From IMG/VR virus record IMGVR_UViG_3300025018_000001: a stretch of DNA of 64,000 nucleotides; one strand, written 5' to 3'. The stretch comes from a virus. Its lineage: Duplodnaviria > Caudoviricetes. This document shows positions 4,939-42,405 of this stretch, piece by piece (within the stretch, counting starts at the first letter, position 1; every line of letters starts with the position of its first letter). Position numbers and translations under genes: made by a program. A model generated the notes under the pieces. That model did no database searches. It was not told the origin of the DNA and was given only the letters and a program-made list of their open reading frames with translations.

Positions 4939-5097
4939 TTAATCAGTCTTTCTACTTGGATGTTTCTTTTTTCTACAATAAATAGTTTTATCTTTAACTA
5001 CTTTTGTTTGTGTATTATACTCTAAAAATTCTTTACGTGCAAGCTTTTTTATTAACTTTGTTCTTCTTTTTACTAAGTCATCCTTTTTGTTTGACAC
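4939..5097 (-). CDS. Small basic protein with ArfA-like motif (alternative ribosome-rescue factor-like), 52 aa
   Basis: Not in track. GTG start: VSNKKDDLVKRRTKLIKKLARKEFLEYNTQTKVVKDKTIYCRKKKHPSRKTD*; KVVKxKxxYxRKxKH resembles the ArfA core. Confidence 0.5.
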   Translation of the reverse strand: MSNKKDDLVKRRTKLIKKLARKEFLEYNTQTKVVKDKTIYCRKKKHPSRKTD

Positions 5098-5103
5098 GGC
5101 ATA

Positions 5104-5268
5104 CTACCCCCAAAATGTTCCAGGTATAAGCTCACAGTCAAAGTAATCCTTCAAGATATAAATATCTCTTTCAGAAAGGCCAGCATCTTTAATTTCATTC
5201 ACTAATAAGCTTATACGCTTTTTTATTATTTTTAATTTTTCAATTTCTTTTTTATCTTGTTTATCCAC
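5104..5268 (-). CDS. Hypothetical protein, 54 aa, ends in TAG in frame with the ArfA-like ORF
   Basis: Not in track. AGGAG RBS, GTG start, VDKQDKKEIEKLK...LIPGTFWG*. Confidence 0.6.
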   Translation of the reverse strand: MDKQDKKEIEKLKIIKKRISLLVNEIKDAGLSERDIYILKDYFDCELIPGTFWG

Positions 5269-5304
5269 ATATACTCCTATAATTGAAATTAAAAAACTAC
5301 ACTA

Positions 5305-5505
5305 CTAAAAGCTAGTGGTGTAGTTTTCCTCTGTAGAGTTCTGTATAAACTCGTCTGGGTCAATGAGCTTGTAGCTTATAACCTTATTACCATCTTCATC
5401 AAAAGCATCCACAAAAAGAAAAGCGGACTCGAATGCATCTTCCGACGAAAAATATATTGCTTCAGGTCCATCTTCGGACGATGCAACAAAGTAAACGGCC
5501 TCCAT
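5305..5505 (-). CDS. Acidic hypothetical protein
   Basis: ORF track, AGGAG RBS, TAG TAG double stop. Confidence 0.7.
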   Translation of the reverse strand: MEAVYFVASSEDGPEAIYFSSEDAFESAFLFVDAFDEDGNKVISYKLIDPDEFIQNSTEENYTTSF

Positions 5506-5570
5506 AAATATCTCCTGTATAAATTTTTAAACTGAATACTACCTCTATTGTATACAAGAAACATTATTAG

Positions 5571-6290
5571 TTATTTTGCTGTAGCCATTACATTGTCTAC
5601 TACTTGTTCATACCCAGGCCAATTATCTACACCACTGCCTTCTAAAGCTATAAGAAAATTATTGTTTTTAATTAACATAGCATATTCTTCTTTTGATATA
5701 GTTACTGATTTTGATGCTAACCATTGCCTTAATCCAGCTAACATATAGGAAAAATCATCAAAAAATAAAACCCCGTACACATTTTCGTTATATGGATACC
5801 TTATAGACATTACAGGTAAACCTATACTAACAGCATATTGCTGACTTGAAGGGCTATCATCTATAAATAAATCAGCATCTTGCAACAAAGGGTGTTTATC
5901 ATCAACTGTATGAAGTTCATCAAAGAATATATTATGTTTATTAAGCCAAGCTTTAGTTGCTGCCTTAGATTTATATGTTCTATGAGAAGCTATTTTAACA
6001 TAGAAGCCAGAATTATGCAACATATTTGTCAGCTTACCCGCGCCTTCAAAACAACCAAACTCCTCTTGACGCATATGTACCGCGTCAATAGTCTGTTGAA
6101 AAATATGATCATCCATAAAACCCTCACCAAAATTCCAGCTATTCGTACTTCCTGGGAAGGGTATATCCGGGTTTATCTTTATAAGTTCTTCATACCAAGC
6201 AGGTGCCATAGACCATAGAATACCATCAATATCTACAACCGCTATTCTTTTATACATAGTGTCTCTTTGGAAAAAATCTTTTTTAACCAT
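5571..6290 (-). CDS. HAD-superfamily 5'(3')-deoxyribonucleotidase (NT5C-like)
   Basis: VVDIDG motif I, FIDDSP motif IV. Confidence 0.8.
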   Translation of the reverse strand: MVKKDFFQRDTMYKRIAVVDIDGILWSMAPAWYEELIKINPDIPFPGSTNSWNFGEGFMDDHIFQQTIDAVHMRQEEFGCFEGAGKLTNMLHNSGFYVKIASHRTYKSKAATKAWLNKHNIFFDELHTVDDKHPLLQDADLFIDDSPSSQQYAVSIGLPVMSIRYPYNENVYGVLFFDDFSYMLAGLRQWLASKSVTISKEEYAMLIKNNNFLIALEGSGVDNWPGYEQVVDNVMATAK

Positions 6291-6326
6291 GTTAGTAATC
6301 CTTTATTTTTCTTTTTAGTTTATATA

Positions 6327-6413
6327 CGGATAGAGAGGGATTTGAACCCTCGGTGGCTTTTATACCACACTTGTTTAGCAGACAAGCACCATAGGCCTCT
6401 CGGTCATCTATCC
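6327..6413 (-). tRNA. tRNA-Ser(GCT)
   Basis: Cloverleaf, anticodon arm CTTGT-CT GCT AA-ACAAG, long variable arm, GGTTCAAATCC T-arm. Confidence 0.95.
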
Positions 6414-6418
6414 TTAAA

Positions 6419-6604
6419 TTAGGAATTAGTAGATAGTAGTTCTGGTATAATAGTACTAGTTACTAAGCTTTTGTTTTTAACGCCAGAGTACATCTCTCTC
6501 AATAATGACATCTTAGCGTGACGTCGCTCATCAAACGTTACTTCTGATACTGGTTTCTTAAACATTCTGGCTGCCAATGATTTATAAAAGTCATATTCTT
6601 CCAT
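6419..6604 (-). CDS. Mini-protein resembling the DNA polymerase A fingers (helix N-O, motif B) segment
   Basis: DFYKSLAARMFKKPVSEVTFDERRHAKMSLLREMY aligns with PolA DLHTVNAARIYEVPYDKVTPEQRKASKAISFGLAY. Confidence 0.6.
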   Translation of the reverse strand: MEEYDFYKSLAARMFKKPVSEVTFDERRHAKMSLLREMYSGVKNKSLVTSTIIPELLSTNS

Positions 6605-6615
6605 TAATTATTACC

Positions 6616-6918
6616 TCAGTATTTAATTTTATGTGCCTTTTTGTGGCACTTACTACATATGGTTACTAAATTTTTAGCTGGCTCGTTCCATGGGTATTTC
6701 CTGGTGTACTTTAAGTGATGAAGGTGTAGCATTGTTTCTGTGTCGCCACACTCTTTACATTTCCAACCATCTCTTTCAAATATCTTAAGTCTTTTCTTTT
6801 GCCATTTTGGGTGTTGCAAAGCTAAAGCATACTGCTCTTTAGTGAGTTTGACATAGGGTTTTCCTATAACTTTGGCTTGGGCTTTCTTTTTTATTTGTTT
6901 GGTCTTTGGTTTTTTCAT
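6616..6918 (-). CDS. HNH endonuclease
   Basis: RD.W.CKECG, LHLHH, NLVTICSKCH. Confidence 0.88.
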   Translation of the reverse strand: MKKPKTKQIKKKAQAKVIGKPYVKLTKEQYALALQHPKWQKKRLKIFERDGWKCKECGDTETMLHLHHLKYTRKYPWNEPAKNLVTICSKCHKKAHKIKY

Positions 6919-6922
6919 ATAC

Positions 6923-7225
6923 TTAGTACACTCTTAAACTATTATTATAGATTTCAAATACGCCAGAGTTACCTGTTCTCAAATGTACAATTGTAAACTC
7001 ATCGCCCTCGTAAACCCATTCTTGGCCAAAGGCCGTAAAAGTTGTACAACTATTACCATCAATAACATCATTATACTCTGGTGCTACGTGTATTTTGTAG
7101 TCATCTAATTTCCAATGATAAAATTCATTAATATAAATAGAGTGAGTATTATTATACATAGTGTCACAATTAAAATATCTCATTAATTCTTCTCTAGCCG
7201 TGAAGTAGTCATAAAATAATTTCAT
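6923..7225 (-). CDS. Hypothetical protein
   Basis: ORF track, GGAGG RBS. Confidence 0.7.
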   Translation of the reverse strand: MKLFYDYFTAREELMRYFNCDTMYNNTHSIYINEFYHWKLDDYKIHVAPEYNDVIDGNSCTTFTAFGQEWVYEGDEFTIVHLRTGNSGVFEIYNNSLRVY

Positions 7226-7235
7226 ACAGACCTCC

Positions 7236-7631
7236 TTATAAAAGTTTTAAATCCCCTGTTATTTTATCAATATCTTCACTAACCCAAGGACCTATACCGA
7301 CACAAGTGTATGTGGGTACACCACCAAATTCTGTTCGACCAGCGTCTCTTATTAAAGCACAAGGAATACAAGCTTCTTTAGACCTAATGTATATATCCAT
7401 GAGAGCCTCTTCACTATCCACACTTACAACAATTTTGGTAAAGGAGCTATCCAACCAATGTTTTATAGGATCTGGTGCAAAAATAGGGTCTACATCATCA
7501 TCTCTTATTGCTTGATTTATGTCAAGCTCAGCAAGTATTACAGCTAAACTTGCATGGGCGCCTTGCGCAATCATCTTACCTTTACGCATATTTAAATCTT
7601 TACGCATAACAATAACTTGTTTTGTTTCCAT
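7236..7631 (-). CDS. pth2: Peptidyl-tRNA hydrolase, Pth2 (archaeal/eukaryotic) family
   Basis: KQVIVMRKDL.M.KGKMIAQGAHA, KIVV, IRDAGRTE, TCVGIGP: full Pth2 signature. Confidence 0.93.
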   Translation of the reverse strand: METKQVIVMRKDLNMRKGKMIAQGAHASLAVILAELDINQAIRDDDVDPIFAPDPIKHWLDSSFTKIVVSVDSEEALMDIYIRSKEACIPCALIRDAGRTEFGGVPTYTCVGIGPWVSEDIDKITGDLKLL

Positions 7632-7852
7632 TAAAAAATCTCCATACGTATTGTAGCATCAGAAACAAATGCTTCTGAGTATTTGTGACCCATTGTTCTT
7701 GTATAAACCATATCTATATCTATAGAATGTTCTGCACAACGTATGCCTGACTTCTCTTTAAAGTCTTCTAAGATTCTAGATACTTCTTTTGCTATCTCAC
7801 TTTCTGCTTCTTTTTTCATTTTAGAAAGTTCTTTTACTGTTATGTCGTACAT
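7631..7852 (-). CDS. Hypothetical protein (start revised to MYDITV so it does not overlap the tRNA)
   Basis: AAGGAG RBS immediately after the tRNA 3' end. Confidence 0.7.
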   Translation of the reverse strand: MYDITVKELSKMKKEAESEIAKEVSRILEDFKEKSGIRCAEHSIDIDMVYTRTMGHKYSEAFVSDATIRMEIF

Positions 7853-7864
7853 ATTAACTCCTTT

Positions 7865-7936
7865 TGCCTCCAGAGGGAATCGAACCCCCGTCACACTATT
7901 TTAGAGGTAGTTGTTCCACCATTGAACTATGAAGGC
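7865..7936 (-). tRNA. Amber suppressor tRNA, anticodon CUA
   Basis: GCCTTCA/TGGAGGC acceptor, GTTC/GAAC D-stem, ACTAC-CT CTA AA-ATAGT anticodon arm (C.A mismatch at 31-39), GGGGG-TTCGATT-CCCTC T-arm, A73. Confidence 0.88.
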
Positions 7937-7948
7937 TTCTAATTTAAA

Positions 7949-7982
7949 TAGAGCCGTACATAAATAGTTAGGTACGGCTCTA
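7949..7982 (-). terminator. 11-bp hairpin between the Pth2-like gene and the suppressor tRNA (weak terminator or processing signal)
   Basis: TAGAGCCGTAC-N12-GTACGGCTCTA followed by TTTAAATT. Confidence 0.55.
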
Positions 7983-7986
7983 AGTT

Positions 7987-8289
7987 TTATAATAAAGACA
8001 TGTTAGCAAAATAATCGTTACTGCCTAGGCTTGCTATAGCAGTAAGTTGATTGTTAAAATCAGGCTCTTTAAAACTTGTATAATGGATCTTACCATGTTT
8101 AAGAAGCGCTGTCAAGGATTTTAATTCATCCTCATCATTTACTTTTAAGTACACTAAAGTACCATTAGACCAATGAGTATTATTTTTTAACAAATACTCG
8201 GCTAAGGCGTGGCCAGCTTGGACCGCTTGCTGGGATTTAGATAAATCTTTTCTTGTAACTACATATAACTTATCCTGCATTTGCAACAA
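7987..8289 (-). CDS. Pth2-like protein (PTRHD1-type divergent peptidyl-tRNA hydrolase)
   Basis: LYVVTRKDL...QAVQAGHA, LVYLKV.DEDEL, F.EPD...TAIA. Confidence 0.8.
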   Translation of the reverse strand: MLQMQDKLYVVTRKDLSKSQQAVQAGHALAEYLLKNNTHWSNGTLVYLKVNDEDELKSLTALLKHGKIHYTSFKEPDFNNQLTAIASLGSNDYFANMSLL

Positions 8290-8590
8290 GCTCCTGCTTT
8301 TTAAGATTTTCCCAATGAAGGATGATAGGTTTCATAATCCTATCTACGTAGTACGTGTCAGGCTTGTTATCGTCTGCACACTTACGTTCTATTTCCTCCA
8401 TAGATCTACCTCTTATCAAACAGTAAGCTATGTGGTGGTGCCTATAATCATATCGTAGATCATCTAATCCAGCTACTACACCGTAAAGAGAACCCTTACG
8501 TTTAGATTTTTTATTTCTAATCTCTACCGCTGCTTCTTTTAATGCTACTTTTAGTTCTTTTAATGTTTCTATTTTAGTATTAATTTTCAT
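8270..8590 (-). CDS. Hypothetical basic protein (YRHHHIAYCLIRGR motif), coupled to the Pth2-like gene
   Basis: ORF track, GGAG RBS, overlaps next start. Confidence 0.75.
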   Translation of the reverse strand: MKINTKIETLKELKVALKEAAVEIRNKKSKRKGSLYGVVAGLDDLRYDYRHHHIAYCLIRGRSMEEIERKCADDNKPDTYYVDRIMKPIILHWENLKKQELVANAG

Positions 8591-8657
8591 AATTTTTTCT
8601 CCGTATTTATTTATTAGTATAGTAATAATAGTAGTAACAATTATAGTACCAATAAAT

Positions 8658-8699
8658 TTACGGTGACCTAACTACCTAGACGAATCCTGATTTTGTCAT
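8658..8699 (-). promoter_or_regulatory. Leader uORF MTKSGFV-(TAG)-VVRSP-(TAA) with internal amber codon
   Basis: AAAGGAGG-GACT-ATG ACA AAA TCA GGA TTC GTC TAG GTA GTT AGG TCA CCG TAA, followed by AU-rich hairpin 8609-8657. Confidence 0.65.
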
Positions 8700-8712
8700 A
8701 GTCCCTCCTTTG

Positions 8713-8961
8713 TTAATTGTATTTAGTTTGTACTATCTCCGCATCAGTGAAAACATGGGTATCTTTATCAGCACATACCCACAGGGGAAAACTTTCCCCA
8801 CTATTATCATGTAAGTGAAGACCACATAACTCACCATTTTTTATTTGCACCCATTTATACATGTAATGCTTCTTCCTGCGTACAGCACCTATAAAGTGGA
8901 ATACTTTGAGAACATCAAATTCACGTATCTCATTCCCTTTCTTATCTAGAACCTTCTTCAT
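8713..8961 (-). CDS. Hypothetical protein (DKKGNEIREFD, YopX-like motif)
   Basis: ORF track. Confidence 0.65.
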   Translation of the reverse strand: MKKVLDKKGNEIREFDVLKVFHFIGAVRRKKHYMYKWVQIKNGELCGLHLHDNSGESFPLWVCADKDTHVFTDAEIVQTKYN

Positions 8962-8970
8962 GCTTAGACC

Positions 8971-9153
8971 TTACTTCTCTTCTTTAGGGCCACTAGTATC
9001 AGTAGTGTATCTACTTACTCTATCGTGACAAACTATACAGTGTACAAGCCCTTCAAAATTGTCAATTATATTGGAGTCTCTATATACACCGCCGCAACCA
9101 TTTTCACAGGGTCTATCTAGTCTATCCTTTACGTTGTTAAAAGGTTTAATCAA
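8971..9153 (-). CDS. Small Cys-rich hypothetical protein
   Basis: CENGC...CIVC, AGGAG RBS. Confidence 0.6.
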   Translation of the reverse strand: MIKPFNNVKDRLDRPCENGCGGVYRDSNIIDNFEGLVHCIVCHDRVSRYTTDTSGPKEEK

Positions 9154-40082: not shown

Positions 40083-40499
40083 CTAATTAGTTTTCTCTAT
40101 AAAATTAGCATAAAACTGGGCGCCAATCCACGAAGAACTTTTAGGCACAAAACTGACAACACATATTGGGTCATCTAATTCTGCTCCTTGTTGTTTAACA
40201 AAAATATAGTTTAAATGTATAAAAAAATCTAGGCTTTCGTCATAGAAATTTTTAATTTCCATTTTCATAACATTTTCTAAATATTCAAGACTGACCCCCG
40301 TGAACCTATAGTCCTTAAGTAAGCTTATAGTAGTCTGGTCAGTGAATCCACACAAGTGTGAGTGGTTGTATAAAAGAAGCTCACCACCAATGTCGTCTAT
40401 TATAACATCTTCAGAATATTTAGTCAACAAAACTTTTATATTATTTCCTATAGTAACCATATTCATTTCCTTAATCTTGTTTAGCAGTACATTTATCAC
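40083..40499 (-). CDS. Hypothetical protein
   Basis: ORF track. Confidence 0.6.
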   Translation of the reverse strand: MINVLLNKIKEMNMVTIGNNIKVLLTKYSEDVIIDDIGGELLLYNHSHLCGFTDQTTISLLKDYRFTGVSLEYLENVMKMEIKNFYDESLDFFIHLNYIFVKQQGAELDDPICVVSFVPKSSSWIGAQFYANFIEKTN

Positions 40500-42405
40500 A
40501 TACTAGTCTAGTACCATAATGGTCGTCCGCCTCAAATCTCATTATATTGTGTTCACATTTTTTACCACTTGCATCCTTTTCTTCACATTCATGCTTTATC
40601 CAACAAGGGCCTATTACTGGTGCAGTACGCATGGGCATAACAGGAAAATAATGATTAAAGGCGTCATCCACAGAACTTACAACTATCTTAGCCACCTCAT
40701 CTGCATGAGTTATAGGTGCCTCTACAACAATCTCATCATGTACCGACAATAACAAACGTGCACCAACATCTAATTGTTCTAAACGTTCAACACATAATAC
40801 CATTGCTAATTTAATAGTATCACTGTCGGAACCCTGAATCTTATGATTTTTAGCAGCACGTTCTACCCCACCTATTATCTTCTTCCTTGCTGGGTCACTC
40901 ATAGGTGGTATATTGTAAAAACGGTGTCTACCTGTAATAGTAGTACTACTATGTGTACGTACTGCGTCCTTTGCTGCTTTAGTAAGCCAAGTATTCAAAA
41001 CATTATTGATTCTAAAATATTTATCAATAAGCTTTTGAGCTGTATCCTTAGGTATACCTAAACGTTTACCCAAACCAACAGCAGAAATACCATAAGCAAG
41101 TCCAAATGAAATAGCTTTGGAGGCTTTACGTTGTTCAGGAGTAACCTTATCATATGGCACTTCATAAATTCTAGCAGCGTTTACTGTATGTAAATCTAAA
41201 CCTTTCTCATATGTGTCTAAAAAGTTAGGCTCTCCTGACATAGCACCCATAATAACTAATTCTGCAGAGTTCTGATCCACAGTTATTAAACACATTTTAT
41301 CGTCTGCTATAAAACAAGATCTAAACTTTTGCTTTCCTGGTATATTCTGTAAATTAGGGTTGTTAGAAGACATCCTTCCTGTCGATACCATCTGCTTAAA
41401 CTGTGTATGTAATCTTCCTGTTTTAGGGTGTATACGCTCAATTAAAGCTTCACCATAAGTATTTACTAACTTGGCATTTTGTCTGTAAGATAATAAATCA
41501 TCTACAACTTTATGACCAGAATATTTTTTTAACGCCTCGTTTGCAGTGGACTCAACCTTAATACCAAGTTTGTTTAAGGCTGCCTTAAGTTGAACAGGGC
41601 TTGCAATATTAACTGTTGGTACACCAAATAACGATAACTGGTCTTGTGTGACTTGTAAGCTATCCTCAATATTCTTTTTGAACCCTTCAAGCTCACTAGC
41701 AAATTCATCCATCATAAGACGCCACTTTGTTACATCTAATTTTACACCATTTAATTCCATCTCACACAGTGGTTTTATAAAAGCCATTTCTAGTGCTAGT
41801 ACCTCTTGCAAATTGTACTTCTCTATTCTTTGCATTTGCATACTACGTATTATATCTAATACACAAACATCATTTGCGGCATATGCAACCTGTTTGTCAG
41901 TAAATTCTTGGTCATAAACTTCAAAAGTCCCACGAGGTTCTTTATTCATAACCATTCCTAAGTACTTTTCTACTAATTTAGCTAAACTAAAACCAGATAC
42001 TTGCACACCTAGATACATAAGAATTTCTGCTAGCATTGTATCATAAACATTTTCAATATAAAAACCATACTGAGACTTTAAAACTTTCATGTCATAGCTA
42101 GCATTTTGAAGTATCTTTAATTGCTTTTTACTTGTTAAAATTTTCTTAAATAAACTACCATGAATAGTAATCCCAGGTAAGTCACTTCTTACATCAAATA
42201 CGTAAGCCATATTAGGCACACCTATTTGCAATAGGGTAGTCTTACATCTAAAGGGGTCTAAAGATGTGCCCTCGGTATCTACCTCCAATATTGGCTGGGT
42301 ATATAAAAAATCGAGTACCTCTCTAGCTCTAGCTTCATCTTTTATATATTCATAGTTTGGTGTAGGTAGTTCAGGTAACTCAACAAATGCTTCTAAATTA
42401 TTCAT
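40471..42405 (-). CDS. polA: Family A DNA polymerase (3'-5' exonuclease plus polymerase, no 5'-3' exonuclease)
   Basis: DTE, N..YD, YAAND; GRMSS.NPNLQNIP, D.NSAE, R...K...FG..YG, SVHDE. Confidence 0.97.
   Translation of the reverse strand: MNNLEAFVELPELPTPNYEYIKDEARAREVLDFLYTQPILEVDTEGTSLDPFRCKTTLLQIGVPNMAYVFDVRSDLPGITIHGSLFKKILTSKKQLKILQNASYDMKVLKSQYGFYIENVYDTMLAEILMYLGVQVSGFSLAKLVEKYLGMVMNKEPRGTFEVYDQEFTDKQVAYAANDVCVLDIIRSMQMQRIEKYNLQEVLALEMAFIKPLCEMELNGVKLDVTKWRLMMDEFASELEGFKKNIEDSLQVTQDQLSLFGVPTVNIASPVQLKAALNKLGIKVESTANEALKKYSGHKVVDDLLSYRQNAKLVNTYGEALIERIHPKTGRLHTQFKQMVSTGRMSSNNPNLQNIPGKQKFRSCFIADDKMCLITVDQNSAELVIMGAMSGEPNFLDTYEKGLDLHTVNAARIYEVPYDKVTPEQRKASKAISFGLAYGISAVGLGKRLGIPKDTAQKLIDKYFRINNVLNTWLTKAAKDAVRTHSSTTITGRHRFYNIPPMSDPARKKIIGGVERAAKNHKIQGSDSDTIKLAMVLCVERLEQLDVGARLLLSVHDEIVVEAPITHADEVAKIVVSSVDDAFNHYFPVMPMRTAPVIGPCWIKHECEEKDASGKKCEHNIMRFEADDHYGTRLVCDKCTAKQD

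Follow-up and report, generated by a model that had tools for sequence, protein, structure and literature searches.

A phage protein of 61 residues, maintained by selection and very probably derived from the N/O-helix hairpin of a family A DNA polymerase

A gene for a protein of only 61 amino acids lies within a tRNA/Pth2 accessory operon of a groundwater jumbo phage of about 264 kb. The DNA analyzed here, which we call the window, is a stretch of 64,000 nucleotides from this phage (Caudoviricetes; IMG/VR record IMGVR_UViG_3300025018_000001). Members of the operon include two Pth2 genes, an amber-suppressor-like tRNA, a gene for an HNH endonuclease, the gene for the 61-residue protein (hereafter the mini-protein), a serine tRNA, and a gene that fuses a nucleotidase to a gp5.9-like domain. 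The phage also encodes a complete family A DNA polymerase (PolA), whose gene is located 34 kb from that of the mini-protein. The features on which the argument depends are the following.

5571-6290, minus strand: gene for a 239-aa NT5C-like 5'-deoxynucleotidase with a C-terminal T7 gp5.9-like RecBCD-inhibitor domain (Pfam)
6327..6413, minus strand: tRNA-Ser(GCT), beginning 5 nt past the stop codon of the mini-protein gene, an adjacency kept in most relatives
6419..6604, minus strand: mini-protein gene, 61 aa, ATG to TAA; three predicted helices; homology to the N helix, loop, and O helix of family A DNA polymerase
6613..6617, minus strand: GAGGT ribosome-binding site, 8 nt 5' of the ATG of the mini-protein gene and overlapping the TGA stop codon of the HNH gene
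6616..6918, minus strand: gene for a 100-aa HNH endonuclease (Pfam HNH, E = 4.4e-6), directly upstream of the mini-protein gene
40471-42405, minus strand: gene for the resident PolA, 644 aa, with 3'-5' exonuclease and polymerase domains (profile match)
41089..41196, minus strand: PolA segment compared with the mini-protein, residues 404-439 (N helix, loop, and O helix with motif B)

The initial annotation of this DNA had credited the mini-protein gene with a ribosome-binding site of its own, and the GAGGT box is indeed in place. Its overlap with the stop codon of the preceding gene is also kept in relatives. No promoter-like or terminator-like site was found between the HNH and mini-protein genes. 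In the 239-aa protein, the gp5.9-like domain (PF25708) is recognized with E = 2.1e-10, and the NT5C-like part with E = 1.1e-4, which is slightly under the Pfam cut-off. Some related loci carry a Thg1-like gene (tRNA-His guanylyltransferase family) soon after tRNA-Ser (L001:4506-5192, L002:4504-5190, and L010:632-1321), and the window has no such gene at that place.

Relatives of the mini-protein are few and short. A word-indexed search of 5.8 billion proteins recovered six relatives of 59-61 aa with 74-85% identity. A further four, of 44-70 aa and with identity as low as 46%, came from an exhaustive HMMER scan that covered 1.84 billion cluster representatives. The resulting ten relatives (44-70 aa, 46-85% identity) all reside in related uncultured jumbo phages. 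Because a word-indexed search for longer relatives returned none and the exhaustive scan gave small proteins only, no fused or intermediate form of the mini-protein is known.

Codon alignments built from the DNA of these relatives reveal how the gene has been maintained. Synonymous sites are saturated (pS 0.36-1.0) while pN is 0.02-0.39, and dN/dS is 0.04-0.3 for most computable pairs, reaching 0.54 only for the most distant pair. Reading frame, length, and ribosome site have been retained in nine lineages. With saturated synonymous sites and dN/dS of about 0.04-0.3, the gene is therefore not a decaying fragment. The open reading frame at 6419-6604 is a real gene that is selected for. It had been proposed earlier that homologs be checked for a consistent length near 60 aa and for purifying selection, and both were found; neither of the outcomes named as contrary, a missing profile match or homologs that are decaying polA fragments, was encountered. 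Altered copies do occur. The copy in L018 is missing the N helix, and those in L019 and L020 stop after residue 44 and so are missing helix 3. The gene is thus dispensable in some phages, since these carry truncated versions.

Between positions 6419-6918 of the window and L001:3700-4180, synonymous differences reach a proportion of about 1.0, which is above the 0.75 expected at saturation. The same value is seen for both the HNH and the mini-protein genes in several pairs, and it hints at either a systematically different choice of synonymous codons between phages or an artifact of the counting method.

AlphaFold2, supplied with the family alignment, places three helices in the mini-protein (residues 6-14, 24-43, and 47-59) with a mean pLDDT of 88.6, and the protein is predicted to fold autonomously as a three-helix unit. 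No single similarity statistic for so small a protein is strong because the query is short. Its only Pfam match is DNA_pol_A (PF00476; E = 7.9e-4, profile positions 183-228 of 381), at a score of 18.9 bits that lies under the Pfam gathering score of 34.3. The same entry ranks first for nine of the 11 family members when they are scanned separately (best E = 5.1e-4). Pairwise BLASTP of the mini-protein against the resident PolA yields E values of about 0.006-0.009, and hhalign comparison of the mini-protein family alignment with an alignment of the PolA segment yields E = 4.6e-5 with a probability of 68% over 52 columns. A search of PHROGs matched a DNA polymerase family, and in the phrog_6982 match residues 1-49 of the mini-protein fall on positions 1-49 of the profile. 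Almost all of the 146 weak tblastn matches among 50,697 phage genomes are located within annotated DNA polymerase genes. Searching all PDB sequences with the family profile produced a single match, DNA polymerase I (8jrb), whose E value of 0.26 is not significant alone. In the ESM Atlas, the neighbors are PF00476 clusters whether features or structures are compared.

Comparisons of the predicted fold point to the same part of the polymerase. When the PDB is searched with Foldseek, each of the 50 best matches is a family A polymerase, among them KlenTaq, Klenow, Bst, Pol theta, Pol nu, and the apicoplast Pol (probability up to 0.99, E 0.2-1). Many of these superimpose with an rmsd of 1.2-1.8 A over 37-38 columns at 22-40% identity, most at 25-34%. 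VIA-align pairs model residues 1-40 with residues 728-767 of E. coli Pol I in a gap-free placement (rmsd 2.2 A, 32% identity), and a second such placement pairs residues 1-42 with 728-769; the Z value for the model is at most 4.4. In a scan of 48,161 chains that was independent of Foldseek, PolA ranks second, fourth, and fifth with Z values of 3.5-3.8, no higher than those of unrelated small helical proteins. Geometry of the model alone therefore does not single out PolA, and it is sequence and geometry together that appear to do so. The check that had been suggested for this protein, of the HHpred or Foldseek type, thus matched the PolA N and O helices at the level of both profile and fold. 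Several independent methods, each of them weak, agree on the PolA N/O hairpin and on the same register within it.

In this register, R27, K31, L35, and Y39 of the mini-protein correspond to R754, K758, F762, and Y766 of Pol I. The R-x3-K-x7-Y pattern noted in the initial annotation is preserved, and the fuller R-x3-K-x3-L-x3-Y falls in the motif B register when VIA-align places the model on E. coli Pol I. Examination of the mini-protein for the elements of the motif B hairpin found R27, K31, L35 (in place of Phe), Y39, and S40-G41, with D5-F6-Y7 in place of the D-x-H turn. The four residues R27, K31, L35, and Y39 are invariant or nearly so in the family while positions 24, 28, 30, and 32 of the same helix vary, and therefore the residues that have been retained are those that touch the dNTP in PolA. 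Because hhalign and the structural alignment differ in where they place a one-residue indel, the equivalence of Y39 and Y766 depends on the register and is less certain than those of the Arg, Lys, and Leu residues.

These comparisons suggest that the mini-protein descends from the hairpin of N helix, loop, and O helix in the fingers subdomain of a family A DNA polymerase. Taken together, this descent and the selection acting on the gene constitute an identification that we regard as very probable. The palm, with the carboxylates of motifs A and C, is absent from the 61 residues, and no PolA-like open reading frame lies beside the gene. Lacking palm, thumb, and exonuclease parts alike, the mini-protein cannot polymerize.

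The hairpin was not copied recently from the polymerase that this phage now encodes. Initially, the mini-protein was described as a copy of part of the resident PolA, which aligned without gaps over a quoted segment corresponding to PolA residues 404-438. The alignment stands, with ten of 35 residues identical, which is above chance. The copying does not, since other PolA lineages are closer. The family HMM scores the PolA of Bacillus phage W.Ph. at 17.8 bits, PolAs from the phage's own clade at 2-10 bits, and the resident PolA at 4.5 bits, and BLASTP aligns the mini-protein to the W.Ph. PolA with E = 8e-7 and 43% identity over 42 aa. Because the mini-protein is nearer to this Herelleviridae-type (Bacillus-phage) PolA, it is not the product of a recent duplication of the resident polA. 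Aligned in register, the mini-protein gene and the resident motif B DNA are 45% identical, and their longest common run is 5 nt. Neighboring small open reading frames (6923-7225, 7631-7894, and others) gave only scattered, chance-level matches to PolA and resemble no other part of it, and so the gene does not belong to any visible debris left by a second polymerase gene.

Inteins with LAGLIDADG domains are present in many of the clade's PolAs at two sites, neither of which is occupied in the resident PolA. One site lies within motif B (SFGL|C...HN|CYG; P0024, P0043, P0118, and P0129), and the second follows HKIQG at residue 525 (P0018, P0023, P0025, P0030, and others). The motif B coding region is thus a target of mobile elements in these phages, because inteins have inserted within the motif itself. 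We found no mechanistic link between the PolA inteins and the mini-protein. The idea that the mini-protein gene serves at the DNA level as a repair template or decoy site for a motif B intein endonuclease was rejected on account of its 45% identity to polA and shared runs of no more than 5 nt.

What a free polymerase hairpin might do for a phage can be approached through the residues that it has kept. We tentatively favor the possibility that the mini-protein is a small ligand-binding module that would hold a nucleotide or nucleic acid by its retained O-helix face, a proposal that we advance with considerable doubt. R27, K31, L35, and Y39 (R754, K758, F762, and Y766 in Klenow), together with D5 and Y7 of the "D-x-H" turn, would bind a phosphate-rich ligand, with a nucleoside triphosphate, pyrophosphate, or a nucleic-acid strand as candidates. 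Binding would then either sequester this ligand or present it to another protein. Such binding would be the simplest mechanism, given that the residues preserved by selection are those with which PolA contacts the incoming dNTP and the template. The genes nearby (NT5C-like nucleotidase, HNH endonuclease, and tRNA) likewise relate to nucleotides or nucleic acids, which we count in favor of ligand binding. Counting against it is the composition of the site, as an O helix supplies only part of a dNTP site when the metals and the carboxylates of the palm are missing.

A second stand-alone family bears on this question. A single weak tblastn match outside polymerase genes led to a hypothetical protein of 59 aa that is encoded in the early region of Acinetobacter phage vB_AbaP_ABWU2101 (Friunavirus). 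This protein belongs to phrog_38792 (E = 7e-45), which is filed as of unknown function, and it matches PF00476 at positions 183-221 with E = 1.9e-5. Members of phrog_38792 occur in about 33 Acinetobacter phage records, and their next-best matches are phage polymerases. Some Friunavirus records call the protein a "DNA-binding protein". Five copies were considered, as follows.

L021:2474-2653: copy from vB_AbaP_ABWU2101 (UFJ83473.1)
L023, L024, and L026: further copies
L025: frameshifted copy

The four copies that remain in frame have dN/dS values of 0.25-0.39. Like the mini-protein, phrog_38792 proteins stand alone (59-62 aa), and their best named matches are PF00476 and phage polymerases. The two families also have in common the motifs D-x-Y-K-x-L-A-x-R-x-F and P-V-x-E-V-T. 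They differ in motif B, which is degraded in phrog_38792 and reads Q...R instead of R...K, and in the C terminus, which is rich in Gly and Pro in phrog_38792 and helical in the mini-protein. Phage group and genome context differ as well. If the two families share a function, then the pair of residues that contacts the triphosphate is not essential to it, because the Arg/Lys pair has become Q...R in phrog_38792.

Direct comparison of the mini-protein with the phrog_38792 profile gives a weak match restricted to residues 5-32 (E = 0.0018), and with reciprocal HMMs both small families and PolA score one another alike, at 15-22 bits. Because the link between the families is no stronger than the link of either to PolA, they may share an origin or may have been captured independently. 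One could imagine that unrelated phages (groundwater jumbo phages and Acinetobacter Friunavirus) took the hairpin, either repeatedly or once, and kept it free as a new class of "polymerase-fingers mimics" in conflicts over the polymerase or its substrates, although we judge this to be unlikely. If it were true, such mimics might block a host factor that recognizes the fingers, or they might sequester nucleotides or nucleotide-derived signals. The presence of the Friunavirus family in phages that can be cultured makes a bench test of the question possible.

A rival proposal, and one to which we give a rather low probability, is that the mini-protein is a decoy, its polymerase-fingers surface occupying a sensor, modifier, or inhibitor from the host or a rival in the stead of a phage family A polymerase. 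The family has kept exposed, functionally conserved residues of the O helix in addition to core residues, the accessory region contains the gp5.9-like RecBCD-inhibitor domain, and the similar 59-aa family is found among early genes of T7-like Acinetobacter phages. However, likeness to the resident PolA is poor (4.5 bits with the family HMM), which would be unexpected for a decoy of that polymerase, and we know of no sensor of the polymerase O helix. [quoted passage not shown] Mutations that allow escape from Borvo, however, lie in the proofreading (exonuclease) cleft of the phage polymerase and not in the fingers (bioRxiv 10.1101/2022.08.27.505566). Because these mutations map outside the fingers, Borvo lends the decoy proposal no specific support.

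The mini-protein might instead modulate replication by binding the phage PolA, another part of the replisome, or host Pol I, thereby tuning or blocking its target. Derivation from a polymerase subdomain and confinement of the family to phages that encode their own PolA would both suit this role. Even so, we consider it improbable, since polA is unlinked at a distance of 34 kb and there is no evidence of co-variation. Moreover, the N/O hairpin of PolA packs within the fingers and is not known as a surface on which proteins dock.

About equally improbable is a partnership with the adjacent nuclease, in which the hairpin arrived with the HNH gene or serves its product, perhaps as a subunit that binds DNA, directs the nuclease to its target, or inhibits it. 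An HNH gene is located directly upstream of the mini-protein gene in the window and in eight related loci; the same 100-aa protein is encoded in seven of these (L001, L002, L005, L007, L009, L011, and L014), and the gene is degraded in the eighth (L019) as well as in L020. Overlap of the HNH stop codon with the ribosome site of the next gene, the presence of an unrelated HNH gene at the same spot in L006, and the absence of any DNA-binding module from the 100-aa HNH protein itself are also compatible with a partnership. Co-occurrence, however, is not obligate. The mini-protein gene persists with an entirely different HNH gene in L006 and with none in L012 and L018, and in L012 a 106-aa upstream gene overlaps its start. 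It is thus the mini-protein gene that is the constant element and the nuclease that is the variable one, a pattern that, on the sequences compared, fits recurrent insertion of endonuclease genes at this place better than an obligate two-gene unit. Furthermore, the HNH protein of the window is a generic small HNH whose relatives in annotated phages occur in unrelated contexts, many of them adjoining terminase and none in polA, and an Rfam search of positions 5000-9000 at a permissive threshold detected two tRNAs only and no group I intron. A predicted complex of the HNH protein with the mini-protein, for which alignments of both were provided, received a score of 0.04 against a mark of 0.32 and counts neither way.

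Several further observations concern this endonuclease position. The L006 protein (L006:247-1089) is a zinc-ribbon-rich HNH protein of 280 aa whose gene sits exactly where the usual 100-aa HNH gene is found, and this replacement suggests that the position before the mini-protein gene is a spot at which endonuclease genes recurrently insert. In L019 (2740-3000) and L020, the upstream 87-aa gene has an HNH remnant fused to its start, and within this remnant TAG replaces a conserved Trp codon (HPKWQKK). This phage group encodes a tRNA with the anticodon CUA, and the remnant may be either a pseudogene or a case of read-through. The separate idea that the hairpin was captured together with an intron-type HNH gene found no support, as the HNH of the window is generic and has its relatives by terminase or elsewhere.

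Least probable is that the gene is a non-functional leftover of a polymerase gene that is open by chance, as might be imagined from the truncated or rearranged copies in L018 and L019/L020 and the one frameshifted Friunavirus copy, because synonymous sites are saturated against 46-85% protein identity, length and a low dN/dS are held across the nine lineages, the ribosome site is conserved, the product is predicted with good confidence to fold on its own, and neither nearby PolA-like remnants nor more than the limited DNA identity to the resident polA can be found.

The interest of the mini-protein comes from the piece of polymerase that it represents. Nothing about it is categorically new, because its homology is to a very well known family. 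The O helix is nonetheless among the most studied pieces of any polymerase, and the mini-protein appears to be a natural, free version of it under selection. If it binds nucleotides or DNA alone, it would offer a natural model of the dNTP-binding helix in minimal form; should it instead be a mimic, it would point to some factor of the host or a rival that acts against polymerase fingers. Interest would rise further if polymerase-fingers mimics turned out to be a general class to which both small families belong.

Several known systems invite comparison. A survey of family A polymerases reports splits between whole exonuclease and polymerase domains only (Czernecki et al. 2023, PMC10201439). 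The terms "stand-alone," "standalone," and "intein" are absent from that survey, and a natural, selected, free-standing O-helix protein is mentioned neither there nor in the other literature that we searched. The split polymerases of some T7-like phages (PMC10201439) resemble the mini-protein gene in that a part of PolA is encoded as a separate gene. However, in those enzymes whole domains reassemble into an active polymerase, whereas the mini-protein corresponds to a subdomain hairpin that exists beside a complete and separate PolA.

Interrupted polymerases provide a second comparison. In Bacillus phage Smudge (L015, KX156152.1, 2975-3986), two coding sequences annotated as "DNA polymerase II" flank an HNH gene (gp154/gp155/gp156), so that a PolA-like coding piece is immediately preceded by an HNH gene, just as the mini-protein gene is. 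The resemblance is limited. No other polymerase half adjoins the mini-protein gene, no intron was detected there, and its HNH neighbor belongs to a different, generic small family. In addition, the apparent start of the second Smudge coding sequence near the N helix is an annotation artifact. The annotated start is an ATG inside the exon, which in fact resumes about 60 codons earlier at PNLQN (NLQNLP), such that about 60 residues, including motif A, are missing from the annotation. A split point shared with such polymerases, which the phrog_6982 match beginning at position 1 had brought to mind, was dropped once the Smudge junction was placed upstream at PNLQN.

Another comparison is with the fingers hairpin of E. 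coli Pol I itself (residues 728-767; PF00476 positions 183-228). The mini-protein shares with it the D-x-(H/Y) turn, the V-T-x-(D/E)-(E/Q) loop, and the R-x3-K-x3-(F/L)-x3-Y pattern followed by Gly. It departs from Pol I by a change of His to Tyr at residue 7, a change of Phe to Leu at residue 35, and one residue inserted before the Gly, and its third helix (47-59) has no confident counterpart in PolA.

This same piece of Pol I has been isolated before by chemical means. A synthetic 50-residue Pol I peptide, described by Mullen, Shenbagamurthi, and Mildvan (J Biol Chem 1989; Arch Biochem Biophys 1993), is reported to bind substrate and DNA and so offers the proposed ligand binding a biochemical precedent. 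It is said to span Pol I residues 728-777, which is the same segment that the mini-protein matches. Like the mini-protein, the peptide is an isolated piece from this part of the enzyme. The peptide, though, was made in the laboratory from the E. coli sequence, whereas the mini-protein is natural, has about 30% identity to that segment, and possesses a third helix of its own.
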